This document shows positions 3,755 through 29,065 of a stretch of DNA of 32,895 nt, one piece after another. Source of the stretch: an uncultured archaeon (lineage in GTDB: Archaea; Asgardarchaeota; Thorarchaeia; Thorarchaeales; Thorarchaeaceae); the NCBI GenBank assembly GCA_964610875.1, contig CAZSWP010000041.1, positions 1 through 32,895 of the forward strand, in the 5' to 3' direction. Position 1 is the first letter of the stretch, and each line of letters opens with the position of its first letter. The notes under the pieces are model-generated. The model saw only the letters and a list, made by a program, of their open reading frames with translations. It did no database searches and was not told where the DNA came from. The position numbers were made by a program, and so were the translations under genes.

Positions 3755-4882
3755 CTATTCTAACATTTTAGGTAGTGAATAGCACTCACCATGTTCATCG
3801 TAGAGTTTCTGAATCTCTGCTTTCACTTTGTCCATGCCCATCTCATTTGCCATTTCAAATGGACCAGCAGGAAAACTTGCACCAAGTTTCATGGCTTGAT
3901 CAATGTCATCCTTCTCAGCGATACCTTCGTCAACAAGAATCATAGCTTCTCTAATCACAGGGATTTTTATTCTTGTCACTAGCCAATCCTGATCAACACC
4001 TTTTGGTGGCTCTGGTTCAACTTGAGTTCCACCATATTCGTAGAACCCTTTCTTGGATTTTGTGCCAATTGCGCCAGAATCAACCAAGTTCTTTAATGTT
4101 TCAGGAGGCTTGAAACAATCACCTAGTTCTCGATAGAGAGTACTCATTGCATTGTATGCAATATCTAATCCAACGAAATCACCCAGACTGAAGGGACCAG
4201 CTGGAAACTTTGCAATTGTTGTCATTGCGATGTCAATTTCTTCCTTGGTAGCAACATCCTTTTCATAGAGAATTATTGCTTCTCTAAGCACAGGCATGAG
4301 GATTCTATTAACGATGAATCCAGGACTGTTCTTAGCTTTAACAGGTATCTTCCCCTGTTTTTCTCCAACAGCAACTGCAGCATCAATGGTGTCCTGACTG
4401 GTTTTTTCACCAATCACGATTTCAATCAGCTTCATAGCTGCGACTGGTGAAAAGTAGTGCATACCAATGAAGTTCTCGGGATGCTTGGTAGCAGTTGCTA
4501 ATTCGTCGATGCTTAGTGAGGAAGTATTGGTCGCTAGAATCGCATGCTCAGGTGCATTCTCGGCAACTTCAGAGAATACTTTCTTCTTGATTTCCATATT
4601 CTCAAAGATAGCCTCAATGATAAGATCAGCTTCTTTCACAGCTTCACCAACATTTGTTGTACCACTGAGATTGGCCATCAGGTCCTGTGCTTCAGCCAGA
4701 GACAGCTTACCCTTGTCAACACCAGTCATCACATCATTACGGATACGTTCCATACCTGTATCGAGTGCTTCTTGGTTTACATCAACAAGGGTTACCTTGA
4801 ACCCTTTGCCAGCTGAAACATATGCGATACCAGATCCCATAAGACCCGCACCGATAATTGCAATCTTATTGATCGCCATCAA
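3755..4882 (-). CDS. 3-hydroxyacyl-CoA dehydrogenase with duplicated C-terminal domain
   Basis: GAGLMGSGIA Rossmann motif, EAIFE, ATNTSSL, GMHYFSP, PGFIVNR; second C-terminal domain repeats REA...IDxAM...FPAGPF. Confidence 0.96.
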   Translation of the reverse strand: MMAINKIAIIGAGLMGSGIAYVSAGKGFKVTLVDVNQEALDTGMERIRNDVMTGVDKGKLSLAEAQDLMANLSGTTNVGEAVKEADLIIEAIFENMEIKKKVFSEVAENAPEHAILATNTSSLSIDELATATKHPENFIGMHYFSPVAAMKLIEIVIGEKTSQDTIDAAVAVGEKQGKIPVKAKNSPGFIVNRILMPVLREAIILYEKDVATKEEIDIAMTTIAKFPAGPFSLGDFVGLDIAYNAMSTLYRELGDCFKPPETLKNLVDSGAIGTKSKKGFYEYGGTQVEPEPPKGVDQDWLVTRIKIPVIREAMILVDEGIAEKDDIDQAMKLGASFPAGPFEMANEMGMDKVKAEIQKLYDEHGECYSLPKMLE

Positions 4883-5529: not shown

Positions 5530-5786
5530 TAGTCAGACCTCCATTCTTTTACAGTTCCACCTTCAGCTTCCTTGAATCCGGGACGGAAAGGCCACTGCAC
5601 ACAAAAGCGCATTCCTTTTACTCCATCCTCTTCGCCTCGAGACCACCGGCCAGTATATACTCGGCCACCAGTGTTGTTAGCGAATTGCTCCATAACACAA
5701 ATAATAAGACCTTCAACACTCAGACCAGATTCCTCAGCGAGTTCTTTGAGGTTCTCCATAGTTTTGTCATCAAACTTCAAATCCAT
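5529..5786 (-). CDS. Small protein with N-terminal CopG/RHH-like segment
   Basis: MDLKFDDKTMENLKELAEESGLSVEGLIICVMEQF is an RHH-like pattern; GAGGAG RBS. Confidence 0.65.
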   Translation of the reverse strand: MDLKFDDKTMENLKELAEESGLSVEGLIICVMEQFANNTGGRVYTGRWSRGEEDGVKGMRFCVQWPFRPGFKEAEGGTVKEWRSD

Positions 5787-5789
5787 AAA

Positions 5790-6551
5790 TCACTCCTCCT
5801 CATCCCTGAAAGCAAGACGCCTGTAGGGTTTACCCCATCTTTCTTCATACATGAGTCCTTCAAGGGGAGCTCTGCTTGGACCGAGCGCTCTTGGTGAAAC
5901 TCTCTGACCAATACAGAATGCTGTAAGTGGAGTCCAGATTGGAGGTATTCCCAATCTGTCACGCACGAGTTCTGCATGCCTCGGATCAGAACAGACCAGA
6001 GCTTCGTATCCACATCCATATCCAAGTTCTGTTGCAGTTAACCACATATTTTGAATAGCCATTCCGCATACTACTGAACCAAATAGCTCATTTGGATACA
6101 GATATCCAGCGTCATGCCATGCTTCGCTTGCACAGACAATGATTACTGTGTCACTCTTTTCAGGATACCTGAATAGCTCACCATCTCTGAGCCGTGCATA
6201 TACTGCAGCTCGATATGGATCACTAATGAACCAATTTCTACCACTTGTCAGTTCAAATGGAGCTCCACCAAATGCGGTTTGAGCCATTTCCTGAGCAATG
6301 TCAGCTAGAAATTCCTTGGTTTCCTGATCATCTCGTATCACAACGAACCGCATCATTAGCATATTTTCTGGACTAGGCGCATGTCTTGCCGCCTCCAGTA
6401 TCATTTCGATGTGTTCGTCGGGGATTTTCTCGCCGGTAAACTCTCTAATAGAGCGCCTCTCTCGAATCCATTTCAAGGTCTGCATTTCACCAGACACTTG
6501 GGTTGTATCCTCGGCCTTACCGGCTGATTCAGACTTAGCATCAGCAGCCAA
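5790..6551 (-). CDS. Nitroreductase-family flavoprotein
   Basis: RRSIREF, LEAARHAPS..N...RFVVI, AIQNMWLTATELGYG; TTG start with GAGGT RBS. Confidence 0.92.
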   Translation of the reverse strand: MAADAKSESAGKAEDTTQVSGEMQTLKWIRERRSIREFTGEKIPDEHIEMILEAARHAPSPENMLMMRFVVIRDDQETKEFLADIAQEMAQTAFGGAPFELTSGRNWFISDPYRAAVYARLRDGELFRYPEKSDTVIIVCASEAWHDAGYLYPNELFGSVVCGMAIQNMWLTATELGYGCGYEALVCSDPRHAELVRDRLGIPPIWTPLTAFCIGQRVSPRALGPSRAPLEGLMYEERWGKPYRRLAFRDEEE

Positions 6552-8172: not shown

Positions 8173-9207
8173 TCACAGGTCTAAACGAGAGAAATCAAGT
8201 GCATTTCCAACAATCTTCTCAATTATAGGCACCTTTCCAAGATTCTTAGAAGATACTGTTCCCAATAATGAGTCGACAATTTTGCTAGTGGTATAGGTAT
8301 CATAAGCAGTCATCATGATAGGAATACCAATCTCGCGTGCATGAGATAGTGTGCGTATCTCAGGTCCAACACCACCTGTAAGAATTAAGAGATTTGTATC
8401 AGTTTCCATGGCGGCTAGACAAATATCTGCACGGTCACCACTTGTGATGACTGCTTTATCCTTTGCACGACGGAACCACTTCAATGCATTCTCGGGACCC
8501 ATACTTCCTACCATAAATTGATCAATGGTCAAGTTCAGTTTGTCCTCACCAAGCACCATCTGTCCATCAAGTGATTCTAAGATTTCACCAATAGTTGGAC
8601 TAAATAACTCTCGGTTCGTGAAAATTGTACCTAAGAGGGTCATCCCATTCTCAGTGACAAAAGCCGTTACCTTTTCTTCTACAGTGTTTTTCAACATTGG
8701 AGGAACCATATTGAGTACAATGTATATCTTCTTGCCCTCTTCGGATTTGAAAAGACTCTGTTGTAACAATATATCATCAATGGCTGAAACATCTGGAAAG
8801 TTCACAAGACAGATTACATGTGCAGCAAACATATTCACTAGCTCTGGTGCGGATAGATTAACATGCATTAGATTCCAAGGTGCTTTAGGTCCTTCAATGA
8901 GAACAACATCTTTACCTTTACCAACCTCATTATAGGATTGAGCAAGTTGTTCCTGCAACTTCTTAGCGCCAATTTTGAGTAATTCGTCAAAACTTGAGCC
9001 AATACGATGTATTGGACATATCACTTCAGTTGGTGTATCCATATCAAGTACTTGCTTCATCACTGCAGCATCTTCATCATCTTGACGACCAACAGGCTTC
9101 AGATATCCGACTTTCATACCCTTTTCCTTGAGATGTTTTGCCAATGCAAGGACGACCATCGTTTTTCCAGTCAGTGTTTCGCCGCTTACTACAATATTTG
9201 CGACCAT
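8173..9207 (-). CDS. Phosphotransacetylase N-terminal-like protein (BioD-like P-loop + DRTGG domain)
   Basis: SGETLTGKT, GYLKPVG, VLIEG, ITSGDRADI...LILTGG; TAATG-coupled to ACD, a typical archaeal pairing. Confidence 0.92.
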   Translation of the reverse strand: MVANIVVSGETLTGKTMVVLALAKHLKEKGMKVGYLKPVGRQDDEDAAVMKQVLDMDTPTEVICPIHRIGSSFDELLKIGAKKLQEQLAQSYNEVGKGKDVVLIEGPKAPWNLMHVNLSAPELVNMFAAHVICLVNFPDVSAIDDILLQQSLFKSEEGKKIYIVLNMVPPMLKNTVEEKVTAFVTENGMTLLGTIFTNRELFSPTIGEILESLDGQMVLGEDKLNLTIDQFMVGSMGPENALKWFRRAKDKAVITSGDRADICLAAMETDTNLLILTGGVGPEIRTLSHAREIGIPIMMTAYDTYTTSKIVDSLLGTVSSKNLGKVPIIEKIVGNALDFSRLDL

Positions 9208-11330
9208 TAGTCCTTACCTCCAATTGTTATCTTCACATCAACAGCAGATACACCTTTTCCTTTCTCATAAGCAAATGCGGGATTGATATCAAGTTCCACA
9301 ATTTCATCAAACTCAGTCACAAGCTGACTAATACGTAGTATTGTATCCTCTATTGCAGTGATATCACTAGGACGTTCGCCTCGAACCCCCTTCAGGAGCG
9401 TTCCAATTTTCGTTTCCATGATCAGCTGTTTTGCGTCAGTTCTTGTCATGCGAGCCAGACGGAATGAGATGTCTTTGAGATAGTTGACAAAGATTCCTCC
9501 AGCCCCAAACATGATCAAGGGGCCGAATTGGACATCGCGAGAACAACCAATAATGAGTTCCTTGCCTTGCTCTGCCATTTCCTGGACATCAACTCCATAG
9601 ACAATTGCTTTTGGCATGTGTGTTCTCACATTATCTACAATATCGACAAATGCATTTTCGACTTCTTCAGGAGTTTTTAGACCAACCTTGATACCACCAA
9701 TATCGCTTTTATGGACAATATCAGGACTAGCAATCTTCATTACTATTGGAAAACCAAGTTCGTTTGCTAGTTCTTTTGCTTCTTCGGCAGTGGACGCCAA
9801 GCGAATTCTAGCAACAGGAATACCATAGGCTTCAGCTATCTCATGAGCTTCACTTCCAAGGAGTACTCTACGCCCATCTTCACGAACTTTGTTTATTACC
9901 TTCTTGACTACATCATGGTCTGCAGGAAACTTTGGTATGGGTTCATCTTTTAGTGAATCTCGATTAACAGTGTATTTGAAGAGTTCAGCGAGTGCGTGAA
10001 CTGCACGCTCGGGAAAATCAAATACAGGGATTCCACCATCAGTAAGTACAATACGTGGATACACCATTGAGTTGCCACCCATAAAAACAGCAATGAGCGG
10101 CTTGTTTGGATACTTCTTGTGAGCATCTACAATGACCTGTGCAGTTGCAGTTTCTTTAGTCATTGCTTGTGGTGTAAGTAGGACAATAACTGAATCAACA
10201 TTTTCATCTCTAAGAGAAGCTTCAATACATAACTGATAATCCTCAGGTTGAGCTGTTCCAAGAGCATCAATTGGATTGTATACGGCAGCTGCGGCTGGTA
10301 GATTCTCCTTCAAGTATTCAATGGTGTTAGATGATAGTTTTGCAATCTCAAGTCCTCCTGCCTCACAAGCATCAGTTGTGAGAATACCGGGACCTCCAGC
10401 ATTTGTAACAATAGCTACACGGTTCCCAGCAGGAAGATGCATGTCATCAAAAACGTTAGCTATATCGAAAAGCTCAGCCATACCTATTGCTCTACTGACT
10501 CCACTCTGCCGAAAAGCCACATCGTATGCGGTATCGCTTCCTGCAAGAGAACCTGTATGAGACGATGCTGCTCTAGCGCCAGCAGCACTTACTCCAGATT
10601 TGACAATAAAAATTGGTTTGTGAGGAATTACCTTCCTGCAGGCTTTCATAAATTTTCTTCCATCAACCACGGATTCAATATACAAGAGAAGGAAAGTAGA
10701 ATCGGGATCCTTTCCAAACGCCTCAATAAAATCAGCCTCATCCAATTGTGCTTTATTCCCAAGACTCACAAATTTTGAAAACCCAATTCTCTCCATGAGG
10801 CTCCAATCAAGAATTCCAGTCATCAAAGCACCAGATTGCGATGCAAAAGCAATTGTGCCTTTGGAAGGAGTACCTGCGGAAAAGGACGCATTGTAAGGAG
10901 CATGTGTGTTAATTATCCCAAGACAATTAGGACCTTGAATGACCATATCATACTGTTCAGCTAGCTCAATTAACTTCTTCTCAGCTTCCTGACCTTCATG
11001 TCCAATTTCTTTAAACCCAGCAGTTATTATTACTAGAGCGCGTACACCCTTCTCACCGCACTCCTCTACAGCTTTCAAGACAAAGCGAGCAGGTATGACA
11101 ATCACAGCAACATCAATATCACTAGCAATATCCTTCACTGACCGATAGACATGGTGATTAAGAATTTGACCACCTCGAGGATTGATCGGGTATATTCTAC
11201 CTTCAAAACCGCTATCAATCAGATTTCTCATCACGTCATTACCAAGTTTTCCCTTAGTCGATGATGCGCCAATCACTGCGACTGAGCGCGGGTTGAACAA
11301 AACATCAATTCCTTTCTGTCTATCTACCAT
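9207..11330 (-). CDS. Acetate--CoA ligase (ADP-forming), fused alpha/beta ACD
   Basis: PRSVAVIGAS, GPNCLG, SQSGAL, SLGNKA, SHTGSLAG (phospho-His), TNAGGPG, NPID, and a C-terminal ATP-grasp (VMKIASPDIVHKSDIGG...ELDINP). ATG 11330 preferred over GTG 11339. Confidence 0.96.
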   Translation of the reverse strand: MVDRQKGIDVLFNPRSVAVIGASSTKGKLGNDVMRNLIDSGFEGRIYPINPRGGQILNHHVYRSVKDIASDIDVAVIVIPARFVLKAVEECGEKGVRALVIITAGFKEIGHEGQEAEKKLIELAEQYDMVIQGPNCLGIINTHAPYNASFSAGTPSKGTIAFASQSGALMTGILDWSLMERIGFSKFVSLGNKAQLDEADFIEAFGKDPDSTFLLLYIESVVDGRKFMKACRKVIPHKPIFIVKSGVSAAGARAASSHTGSLAGSDTAYDVAFRQSGVSRAIGMAELFDIANVFDDMHLPAGNRVAIVTNAGGPGILTTDACEAGGLEIAKLSSNTIEYLKENLPAAAAVYNPIDALGTAQPEDYQLCIEASLRDENVDSVIVLLTPQAMTKETATAQVIVDAHKKYPNKPLIAVFMGGNSMVYPRIVLTDGGIPVFDFPERAVHALAELFKYTVNRDSLKDEPIPKFPADHDVVKKVINKVREDGRRVLLGSEAHEIAEAYGIPVARIRLASTAEEAKELANELGFPIVMKIASPDIVHKSDIGGIKVGLKTPEEVENAFVDIVDNVRTHMPKAIVYGVDVQEMAEQGKELIIGCSRDVQFGPLIMFGAGGIFVNYLKDISFRLARMTRTDAKQLIMETKIGTLLKGVRGERPSDITAIEDTILRISQLVTEFDEIVELDINPAFAYEKGKGVSAVDVKITIGGKD

Positions 11331-26200: not shown

Positions 26201-27453
26201 CTAGTTGCACCGACCGGTTCTACCTTGCATTTCTCTAGCAAGGGTTCTAGACCCAGGTCTTCAATCACAATCTTTACCTTTTCGTTGAAAGCTTTGTAAA
26301 TCTCTGACTCAATACGCTCTCGAAACTCTTCAACCTTGCTTATTTGTCGCTTTATATCATCACCAATTCGGAGCAGGTCGTTCGAGTGATACTCAAGATT
26401 TCGCTTTGCTTCTTCAAGTTCTTCTGCTAATCTCCTATTCTTAGCGTATATATCAGAGCCTGCAAATTCGGTCTTCTTCTTTTCTACGTTTTTAGCTTTC
26501 TTCTGAAGCTCTTTCAAAGAACCCTTGCGAATCTTTTCGATTTCCTCAATAGAACGTCGAGCAAGGCGATCTTTAAGTTTCAATGAATCACGTTCAATTG
26601 CCTCTTCGATTCCTGAGAGTCCTTCCAATAAATCAGGATAGCCATCTCTGTCTTCTGTAATTGCCAAATATGGGTCCTCGAAGTAGTCGGTCAATGCCTT
26701 CTGACCACTCGGACTTATCCGAACACCTGTATCTTGTTGTTGAAATTTCTTGACTGCTTTTCTCAGCGTATTCAATTCCATTGTCAAGAGTCTAGATAGA
26801 TGATCTTGTTCTTCATCCAGATTCAGAAGATCTGAAACATTGGAGGCTTCCTTAAATTCATGAAATACCTTCTTAGCTTCTTTGTATTCTTCTAATGCCT
26901 GTTGACGTTTTAGTTGAACTCCACGAATCTGTACTTCAAATTGCTCTTTTCCGTAGGTGAGTTCTCGCAAAGATTCGATTCGACCACCAATACGTTCAAG
27001 GTCTCGAACCCATTGGTACTCATAGAGAAGTTTTCCAATCTTCTTCAGTTCCTTCATGAGTTCTTTCATGTAATCGTCAAGCTGTTTTATGACATTCTTG
27101 TATTTTTTATCCATTCTTCTAATCCAGCGAGCACCTGCACCCCAGAGCTCTTGAATGAAGTATTGAATCTCTGCCTGCATGGCTTCTGTGCTCTCATAGG
27201 TAATGTCTGACTTAACATCAAAACCGGAAACGATTTCACTTATCTTATTTGCAAATCTGCTAGAGGTGTTGATTGCATCCGAGTCCTCTTCTTTACTTGC
27301 GTCCTTGAGCTGAATTGCTATCGCTTCTACATCCCTAAGAGACCTTTCAACAACCTTGTAACTCTTCTCAGCTTGTTTGATGAAATCCTTGCTACTTTTT
27401 GCAAGCTGGTTCTTGTACCATTTTTGGAGTTGTGGAATGGTCAGAGTTGTCAT
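26197..27453 (-). CDS. Helical coiled-coil hypothetical protein (418 aa)
   Basis: Long charged heptad stretches; 4-nt TTGA overlap with dtdA. Confidence 0.85.
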   Translation of the reverse strand: MTTLTIPQLQKWYKNQLAKSSKDFIKQAEKSYKVVERSLRDVEAIAIQLKDASKEEDSDAINTSSRFANKISEIVSGFDVKSDITYESTEAMQAEIQYFIQELWGAGARWIRRMDKKYKNVIKQLDDYMKELMKELKKIGKLLYEYQWVRDLERIGGRIESLRELTYGKEQFEVQIRGVQLKRQQALEEYKEAKKVFHEFKEASNVSDLLNLDEEQDHLSRLLTMELNTLRKAVKKFQQQDTGVRISPSGQKALTDYFEDPYLAITEDRDGYPDLLEGLSGIEEAIERDSLKLKDRLARRSIEEIEKIRKGSLKELQKKAKNVEKKKTEFAGSDIYAKNRRLAEELEEAKRNLEYHSNDLLRIGDDIKRQISKVEEFRERIESEIYKAFNEKVKIVIEDLGLEPLLEKCKVEPVGATS

Positions 27454-27613: not shown

Positions 27614-28417
27614 ATGTCTGAAGTCCTAAGGACTGGGAACCGGCATCCTCGCCTCGATGCAACATATTCAATTGAATGTGCATCATGAGGAAAGGGTCGC
27701 TACGGTCTCTATCTGAAGAGGCTCAGTTTGATTGACCGCTCAGGTGTGGACAGGTTACTGCTCAGGAATCCTGCCAAGTTCAAAGGCGGATTCTGGTTGT
27801 CCTATATCATGGATGATGAAGTACATCTCGTGGAGTCAACAGAACCTTACGAACGCATGGACATCATCAGGCATGAAGAAGTTGATGACACGCAGCGAAT
27901 TGTCTTACACACAAAACAAAAACAAGGGAATCCAATTCTTGAACTGGAACATCACTTATGGAGTAAGAATAAGCCTATTCTGCTTTGGAAACTCATTGTG
28001 AAGAATTCCAGCAAGAAGGTAATCAGAGACCTCAAAGGGTACGTAATCATGGATTGCGATATTGGAGGTCCGAGAAGCTTCAAAGATGACTTTGGTGCAT
28101 TTGATAAGAAATCCTCATCTTTGATGCTTTGGGATGATAATTCCTTATTTGTTAATATGAGCGCGAGACCAGAACCTAATGGATGGGAAATAGCACCTCC
28201 TCTCAAACTGAAGGTGATTAGAGACCATCGTGACCTTCAGAATAACGAAGAAGTCGGACCCCAGGACGTAGCTGGTGCCCTTCAATGGGATCTCGGAGAC
28301 CTTCAACCCGGCGAGAGTGCAAAAATTGAGCTAATTCTCACCGCAGCAGAAGACTCTGATTCAGCTAGAGCGCTCATCAAAGATGGTGTGGCGTTACTAG
28401 ACAAGAAGCTGCCATGA
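27614..28417 (+). CDS. Candidate selenoprotein (267 aa) with CxxU motif and a predicted beta-sandwich domain
   Basis: ATG 27614 is in frame with ORF 27728-28417: MSEVLRTGNRHPRLDATYSIECAS-TGA(27686-27688)-GKGRYGLYLKRLSLIDR...; one in-frame TGA; SECIS-like hairpin at the 3' end. Confidence 0.75.
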
Positions 28418-28449
28418 GGTAGTACTCTAAAAAAGTGAGGACTATTGAG
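28414..28449 (+). ncRNA. Eukaryote-type SECIS element candidate
   Basis: AUGA-GGUAGUACUC-UAAAAAAGU-GAGGACUAUU-GAG: AUGA/GA core, 10-position stem with one A.G mismatch, A-rich apical loop. Confidence 0.7.
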
Positions 28450-28483
28450 CAAAGGGATGCACCCTAACGCTTCAAAAAAGACT

Positions 28484-28517
28484 GGAAGAGATGAGGGATT
28501 AACCCTCTTCTCATTCC
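28484..28517 (-). terminator. Hairpin plus U-tract after the wHTH gene
   Basis: GGAA-GAGA-t-GAGGG-attaa-CCCTC-t-TCTC-a-TTCC, followed on the minus strand by T6 (28479-28474). Confidence 0.6.
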
Positions 28518-28524
28518 GATTGTT

Positions 28525-28971
28525 TCATTCACTTCTCAGATGTTCAACCAGCATTAGTCCACTCTCGGTGAAACAAGCTGGTTCACCTCTATTATTGGCA
28601 TCTCCACCAACCAGTAATCCTAAATCTACCAGCGAACGGAGATTCCATTTTACTGTACTATATGGAACACCTGTTCTTCTGGAAATGACATCGGCTAATG
28701 CGGTCAATGTCATATTATTGTGTTTCAGAACATCATAACTAGTGCAAAGTACGAGTTTCTGTGAGTCACTCATTCTAGCAGAAGCTATGTTGATGAAAAC
28801 TTCAACAAGACCACAAAAAGTAGTTCCAGGTGATGATGAATGTTCAGAAAATTGACAAACCTTACATCCACTGGAGAACATGTCCACCTCGAGGTCTAAT
28901 TTGACATTCACCTCTTGGATAGACGACCCGATATCGATGGGTGGCTGCTGATGAGTTAGATGTGTTAACAC
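28525..28971 (-). CDS. Winged-helix DNA-binding protein
   Basis: MSDSQKLVL...TLTALADVISRRTGVPYSTVKWNLRSLVDLGLL...FTESG; start uncertain. Confidence 0.75.
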   Translation of the reverse strand: MLTHLTHQQPPIDIGSSIQEVNVKLDLEVDMFSSGCKVCQFSEHSSSPGTTFCGLVEVFINIASARMSDSQKLVLCTSYDVLKHNNMTLTALADVISRRTGVPYSTVKWNLRSLVDLGLLVGGDANNRGEPACFTESGLMLVEHLRSE

Positions 28972-29065
28972 CCATTTCGTTTTTTCACCTCTTTTTCTTT
29001 AGGGTCAAGAAATTGTTTGCAGAATTATCACTTAAGCTTTGTTAGCTGCGTAGAAATAAGGTAAA

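Follow-up and report, generated by a model that had tools for sequence, protein, structure and literature searches.

Within the window (the whole stretch of 32,895 nucleotides analysed here, contig CAZSWP010000041.1 of assembly GCA_964610875.1, from an uncultured archaeon of the Thorarchaeaceae, Asgardarchaeota) lies a reading frame with UGA as its 25th codon and a second UGA as its stop, and a hairpin begins at that stop codon. Is the hairpin a SECIS, through which the first UGA could be read as selenocysteine (Sec), and how would the second UGA then still end the protein? We examined the gene, the hairpin, its orthologs and the other selenoprotein genes of the genome with these questions in view.

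The host gene and the Sec machinery

Translation with TGA read as U gives a protein of 267 residues with C-A-S-U at residues 22-25, and about 60 orthologs of the same family align with it from residue 1 straight over the single TGA. A six-frame search found homologs in 134 of 301 sampled Asgard genomes, with at least three families in which the UGA is conserved. No Pfam or NCBIfam family was found for the protein, a PDB sequence search named none, and a match to aIF2-gamma was weak (E 0.002). An AlphaFold model made from the ortholog alignment (pLDDT 89.6) is all-beta with a C-terminal helix. In Foldseek it resembles the N-terminal beta-supersandwich domains of GH94 phosphorylases, glucodextranase and aldose-epimerase-like proteins (E down to 1e-9, TM about 0.6); the fold as modelled is not that of thioredoxin. 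Seven Asgard selenoprotein families are named in the text of Huang 2024 (PMC11227280): SelD, FrhA, HdrA, FrhD, Prx-like, AhpF-N and DsbA-like. The host protein falls outside these seven and may be new; our literature search found no description of it.

The assembly (3.75 Mb, 124 contigs, about 95% complete) encodes a Sec machinery, clustered within about 4 kb on another contig (C12:21063-25267; Table 1).

Table 1. Features of the host gene, its SECIS and the Sec machinery of the genome. Positions are those of the window except where contig C12 is named.
Feature	Position	Strand	Basis or remark
Selenoprotein gene, 267 codons + stop, CASU motif	27614..28417	+	Translation with TGA=U; ortholog alignment
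In-frame UGA, codon 25, predicted to be read as selenocysteine; ~726 nt upstream of SECIS	27686..27688	+	Ortholog alignment
Helix I, 5' strand GAAGC, inside last codons	28405..28409	+	Pairs with 28469-28473 in MFE
AUGA of SECIS core	28414..28417	+	28415-28417 doubles as stop codon of ORF 27614-28417
Upper stem (helix II), 5' arm, GGUAGUACUC	28418..28427	+	RNAfold MFE, ortholog covariation
Apical loop UAAAAAAGU, 9 nt, unpaired A's on 5' side	28428..28436	+	
Upper stem, 3' arm, GAGGACUAUU	28437..28446	+	MFE, covariation
GA of core, predicted partner of GA in AUGA	28447..28448	+	
Accessory hairpin, AGGG/CCCU stem, pentaloop AUGCA	28453..28465	+	MFE; ortholog covariation
Helix I, 3' strand GCUUC	28469..28473	+	MFE; homologous helix covaries in orthologs
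PSTK-like gene	C12 21063-21743		
tRNA-Sec	C12 21813-21899		58 bits
SepSecS	C12 22618-23877		
EFSec/SelB	C12 24404-25267		

A hairpin that begins at the stop codon

A preliminary description of this DNA had drawn a SECIS hairpin around the gene's own stop codon. On inspection of the sequence its coordinates and pairs proved exact, from A28414 and the UGA at 28415-28417 through both arms and the loop to the closing GA. The window stem has seven Watson-Crick pairs, two G.U pairs and one A.G mismatch. One of its pairs is G28418.U28446, in which G28418 is the counterpart of a 1-nt spacer in the orthologs.

RNAfold recovers the AUGA-stem-loop-GA hairpin in the MFE structure of 28395-28480. The single-sequence signal is modest: 28395-28480 has a z of -1.79, its fold being equalled by 15 of 200 shuffles; the hairpin alone, with its closing G.U, gives -6.2 kcal/mol (z -2.4), and stem plus loop only -5.5 kcal/mol. 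It is because the hairpin is conserved across orthologs that we place it beyond chance, the lone sequence being weak. By analogy with established SECIS and K-turn architecture, AUGA and GA would meet as tandem sheared G.A pairs in a kink-turn quartet.

After an A-run, a long imperfect hairpin (GGAAGAGAUGAGGG-AUUAA-CCCUCUUCUCAUUCC) lies at 28484-28516, between two convergent genes. An A-run and a GAGAGG-type hairpin occupy the equivalent position in several orthologs, and the element may be a terminator or 3'-end element. A sub-threshold match to the Rfam 'skipping-rope' family (19 bits, cut-off 36.7) was taken as chance.

Conservation and covariation in orthologs

The ortholog set comprised 51 complete loci, one per Thorarchaeota species; covariation was read from a 30-sequence alignment (A1). 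The stop is UGA in all 51 loci, and the base before it is A in 47 of them and G in four. The in-frame UGA lies in a CxxU motif in 50 of the 51, the remaining one having Cys. The view that the SECIS accompanies the gene with in-frame CxxTGA is thus borne out, both being present in 50 of 51 orthologs.

Downstream of the stop the orthologs share one order of parts: a spacer nucleotide, a stem of 8-10 bp, a loop that opens with (G)UAAAG, the complementary arm, another single spacer, and GAG. The U, G and A of AUGA are invariant columns and the loop A's invariant or nearly so (alignments A1 and A2). Of the aligned G-A-G 3' of the stem, the A and the second G never vary, and the first G is conserved to at least 90%. 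The loop consensus is (G)UAAAGC, with lengths from 9 to 13 nt. Of 30 loci, 29 have CGA, CAA or CCA before the stop, and one has CGG, which makes the core GUGA; a purine thus always precedes UGA, although the encoded residue may be R, Q or P.

Covariation in orthologs had been proposed as a check on the hairpin, and it came out clearly. Compensatory, double-sided changes occur at nine of the ten upper-stem pairs in A1, flanked by the fixed AUGA, AAA and GA. Upper-stem cells are paired in 87.8% of cases, against about 37-44% when the partners are slid by 1-3 columns, and the covariation score was reached by none of 500 shuffles. Such a pattern points to an RNA helix kept by selection between fixed motifs, as in a SECIS.

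Known selenoprotein genes of the same genome

We compared the element with the 3' ends of established selenoprotein genes in the genome, as the preliminary description had suggested. The selD gene (contig C1) has UGA at the Sec position; its last codons are cgaUGA, and behind them come a SECIS-like hairpin and UGAG. Contig C28 holds, at about 8215-8402 (-) and 44655-44798 (-), two VhuU-type genes that are split and some 50 codons long, with the motif YDCULSCGAH including Sec. Both end in ggaUGA fused to a SECIS, and a CCUCGCAAGGG hairpin follows each. Behind one of them the stop is followed by AGGUUCAGC-GUAAAGACAUUG-GCUGAACC-G-GA, with an equivalent element behind the other copy. Among Thorarchaeota, 30 of 30 VhuU loci end in GGA or GAA plus UGA in this layout of AUGA and stop, and their SECIS stem covaries at seven of nine pairs (92.7% paired, 30 loci). 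The layout is thus common to the window gene, selD and VhuU: in register, in motifs and in size the window element agrees with the SECIS of established selenoprotein genes.

This likeness is one of layout and motifs rather than of model score. With a covariance model (R2) of the 30 Thorarchaeota VhuU SECIS, in which G+C-rich sequence peculiar to VhuU predominates, the window element was not recovered at E<=10, and two orthologs of the window family reached just 8-9 bits. Near the VhuU genes of C28 are two MvhD/FlpD domains: in the one beside the first copy (about 8946-9314) this genome has Cys (CNWC), and that near the other copy (47322-47690) is a domain match without in-frame stop.

Cysteine-type and distant homologs

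The preliminary description expected the hairpin to be lost where Cys replaces Sec. This was seen in a distant homolog (L091, family f24), which has C-I-N-C in place of CxxU and shows no type I pattern within -30 to +600 nt of its stop. The single Cys ortholog within the family (L024/L122) has a hairpin that is weakened but retained: in L024 AUGA, AAAG and GAG persist, helix I has disappeared, and the stem contains two mismatches, of which one is beside the core. This state fits a recent change from Sec to Cys with a decaying element, in a single case. Since L024 retains the motifs, only one Cys form, the distant homolog, is shown to have lost the hairpin.

Two groups of distant homologs have UGA in other contexts. 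Those of family f9 (L084-L098) read ..FN(E/Q)(I/V)LAT-U-N..GY(L/I)MGFSIKE and are mostly without Cys; those of f16 read ..RMLCSK-U-ITEADL. The f9 3' ends carry a near-invariant Loki-type SECIS (AUGA-U-UCAAAUAA ... UUAUUUGA-U-GA), 10-30 nt after a UAA stop. The lower helix (UAAAUCC / GGAUUU) has that UAA in its 5' strand, and a covarying accessory hairpin lies behind the SECIS. The f16 genes (L049, L050) have their AUGA 14 nt inside the coding sequence (..aAUGAuuccaccucuUAA..) and their UAA stop within the A-rich apical loop, an overlap of coding sequence and SECIS in a different register from that of the window. A SECIS is present in the Sec homologs of f9 and f16 and none was found in the CxxC homolog L091; the SECIS thus travels with the UGA.

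Comparison with described SECIS types

The features that Huang 2024 (PMC11227280) gives for type I Asgard SECIS are found in the window element. The core, 5'-GA ... [G/A]A-3' and usually AUGA_GA, lies at 28414-17 and 28447-48. For the upper stem (7-15 bp with at most two mismatches in type I) there are nine positions, 28419-27 / 28437-45, with one A.G mismatch. The apical loop (8-20 nt in type I, with unpaired A's on the 5' side) is UAAAAAAGU, of 9 nt. The free energy is -5.5 to -6.2 kcal/mol, below the type I limit of -5 kcal/mol. Type I elements are placed from -30 to +600 nt relative to the 3' end of a UGA-containing gene where the genome encodes Sec machinery; the window element overlaps the stop of such a gene, and the machinery is the cluster on C12.

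Its closest likeness is to the frhA/VhuU SECIS of Thorarchaeia, which in the text of that paper have the same core, the same ranges of stem and loop, and the same position at the 3' end. The GUAAAG loop of the window-family orthologs matches the G[U/G]AAA reported there for Thorarchaeia frhA. The window's own loop departs from the GUAAAGC consensus, and unlike the cases described in that text its element sits on a protein family that is not listed.

The layout had also been called one reported in Lokiarchaeota, and rightly: the lokiSECIS described in the text of Mariotti 2016 (PMC4989117) has AUGA immediately before a stem of about 9 bp, an A-rich loop, GA after the stem, and a position near or overlapping the stop. 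As described there, lokiSECIS differs in having a fixed 9-bp stem, an 11-nt loop and a conserved terminal G, the window loop being of 9 nt. The accessory hairpin and enclosing lower helix treated below are present here and absent from that text.

Assignment to the eukaryotic form-I SECIS stood in part. The element has the Asgard eukaryote-like type I layout, but it lies outside the Rfam eukaryotic SECIS family. With eukaryotic form 1 (Rfam SECIS_1) it shares the AUGA...AA...GA kink-turn layout, the 3' region and the distant upstream UGA; it differs in a shorter upper stem and in adjoining the stop rather than lying deep in a long 3' UTR, and the literature reports no SBP2 in Asgard archaea. 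No Rfam SECIS model matched at gathering score, nor at E<=10 on 28330-28540, which agrees with the published failure of standard tools on Loki SECIS elements.

Like the SECIS of Methanococcales and Methanopyrus, the element belongs to an archaeal selenoprotein mRNA, lies in its 3' UTR and would serve a PSTK/SepSecS/EFSec pathway. The distinction drawn earlier from the methanococcal GAA/A type holds, the pattern being absent from the element, which has neither the GAA_A bulge nor the G+C-rich 3-bp upper stem. A scan of 28387-29017 for GAA_A gave one chance site only, at 28835-28861 in two stem/loop registers; it folds at -0.4 kcal/mol, is A+T-rich, and lies 400 nt off, inside the opposite-strand gene.

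We conclude that window 28405-28473 (+) is very probably the functional SECIS of gene 27614-28417, with a core of the Asgard type I, eukaryote-like kind.

Accessory hairpin and lower helix

Helix I had been described as weak. In the window it has only 5 bp, but in the family it is real, with compensatory changes, and it encloses an extra hairpin. The window MFE structure is a three-way junction in which helix I encloses both the SECIS hairpin and an accessory hairpin. Over 30 orthologs, double-sided changes occur at four of the five accessory-hairpin pairs and at five of the nine pairs of helix I. The last codons of the orthologs pair with a pyrimidine-rich stretch downstream, with compensatory combinations such as CGGCAAGAAG with CUUCUUGCCG and CGACAGGAAA with UUUCCUGUCG. 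Helix I duplexes average -11.5 kcal/mol for cognate strands, -7.4 for non-cognate and -5.4 for shuffled ones.

Accessory hairpins with pentaloops such as CGCAA, UGCUC and UGCGC also lie behind the VhuU, selD and f9 SECIS. The VhuU accessory hairpin is 97.5% paired over 30 loci; that of f9 has double changes at four of four pairs, and its enclosing helix I is 86.8% paired. The module can be described as an accessory stem of 3-5 bp with a GC-containing pentaloop (CGCAA, UGCGC, AUGCA), starting 3-6 nt after the GA of the core, and a lower helix whose 5' strand is in the last codons or includes the stop. With compensatory changes it stands behind three gene families (window gene, VhuU and selD) in at least two Asgard classes. 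In one Thorarchaeota clade or genus (L009, L011, L012, L015-L017, L020) there is no helix I, and the accessory hairpin is extended (GCCGGGU-UGCA-ACCCGCGGC), so that the family is not uniform in its junction. In the texts of Mariotti 2016 (PMC4989117) and Huang 2024 (PMC11227280) the lower stem is a simple one, and beside it only the core, the upper stem and the loop are described. The three-way junction may be new.

Genome-wide searches

A loose SECIS descriptor was unspecific, with 207 hits in the genome and 94 in shuffled sequence, and missed selD and VhuU. A whole-genome search with a core model (R1), in which 150 of 1400 candidates were scored, gave no match, the window element being among those not matched. 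A GUGA...GA pattern over the TGA stop of a nitroreductase-like gene in the window (5753-5793, -) was rejected as a false positive: its "stem" is the start (ATG) of the next gene, and its upstream in-frame TGA is not in coding-like sequence. SECIS-like patterns of the [A/G]UGA-stop kind were also seen on C94 at about 4699-4730 (-), where an ORF of 157 codons is preceded by TGA and 151 open codons, and on C38 at about 26460-26500 (-), with an ORF of 318 codons.

Alternative explanations

That the hairpin arose by chance in A+T-rich intergenic DNA might be argued from the z of -1.79 and from the loose descriptor, which hits shuffled sequence too and gave a false positive in the window, yet chance is contradicted by covariation and invariant motifs across 30-51 species, and we give it very little weight. 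Less credible still, almost to the point of dismissal, is that ATGA is a stop/start overlap for translational coupling, with an incidental hairpin. ATGA is indeed the classic 4-nt gene overlap; however, an ATG at 28414 opens M-R-stop only, on which ground we rejected such an overlap. Moreover, the gene that follows runs towards this one on the minus strand, GTGA replaces ATGA in four orthologs that have an equivalent hairpin, and stem covariation would be left unexplained. A conserved kink-turn hairpin with a role outside Sec (an L7Ae-bound regulatory or stability element, a C/D-like RNA, or a signal for the transcript 3' end) would account for AUGA...GA, a generic K-turn signature, and for the position at a transcript 3' end between convergent genes. 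It would not account for the in-frame UGA that accompanies the element in all but one of the 51 orthologs, for the AUGA-stop layout in selD and VhuU, known selenoprotein genes, or for the failure to find the element within -30 to +600 nt of the stop of the CxxC homolog. Nor is there a U-tract directly after the stem, or C'/D' boxes or guide-length spacers. We regard this reading as improbable, and a SECIS as the preferred one.

How much of the SECIS is needed is a separate matter. The functional unit may be the whole three-way junction, accessory hairpin and helix I both being required, for example for a second protein contact. In favour of such a unit, covariation of the accessory hairpin and its enclosing helix recurs in three independent sets (window family, VhuU, f9). 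Against it are the Thorarchaeota clade that does without helix I, the shortness of that helix in the window (5 bp), and the Asgard and eukaryotic models, which as set out in the published texts need just core, upper stem and loop. On this evidence we think a strict requirement for the whole junction rather unlikely.

Termination, recoding and implications

The overlap of stop and AUGA has been published: AUGA doubles as the stop codon of Loki VhuU.1 in the text of Mariotti 2016 (PMC4989117), and such overlap is frequent in Lokiarchaeia according to that of Huang 2024 (PMC11227280). The window SECIS therefore joins an established Asgard type, and the overlap itself is not new. The preliminary description proposed that embedding shields the terminal UGA from Sec decoding, which is plausible and would be a matter of geometry at the ribosome, as outlined next. 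The published explanation for termination at the terminal UGA is a minimal distance between UGA and SECIS. Distant Sec homologs stop at UAA outside the core, so embedding is not required; it is a Thorarchaeota solution.

In the mechanism we propose, a ribosome at the UGA of codon 25 would stand ~726 nt upstream of a SECIS that is still folded. The folded SECIS would recruit the Sec-specific elongation factor with Sec-tRNA(Sec), directly or through a K-turn binder, and the UGA of codon 25 would then be decoded as Sec. The UGA inside AUGA would act as a real terminator. With the ribosome at this terminal UGA, the SECIS would be in or at the mRNA channel and could not fold, and the release factor would probably win because the SECIS is unfolded there.

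A broader proposal is that the Asgard SECIS is a conserved three-way junction, not a simple hairpin, which could offer a second recognition site for a SECIS-binding factor, and that the host gene marks a widespread, unlisted Asgard selenoprotein family (beta-supersandwich, N-terminal Sec). We put this forward tentatively, as a possibility somewhat short of even.

For the gene itself, the SECIS provides independent evidence by which what looked like an ORF with a weak TTG start is recognised as a real selenoprotein gene. It supports the Sec reading and can therefore be used to re-annotate genes of the host family, which extends the known Asgard selenoproteome past redox-fold proteins. The rule is strict, in that the UGA of the AUGA core is the stop in every Thorarchaeota ortholog and VhuU gene examined. 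Together with f9, where UAA is in the lower helix, and f16, where it is in the loop, the window type forms a natural series for how near to a SECIS a UGA may lie and be read as stop or as Sec. The series is also relevant to the contribution of the accessory hairpin, and hence to the origin of the eukaryotic system.
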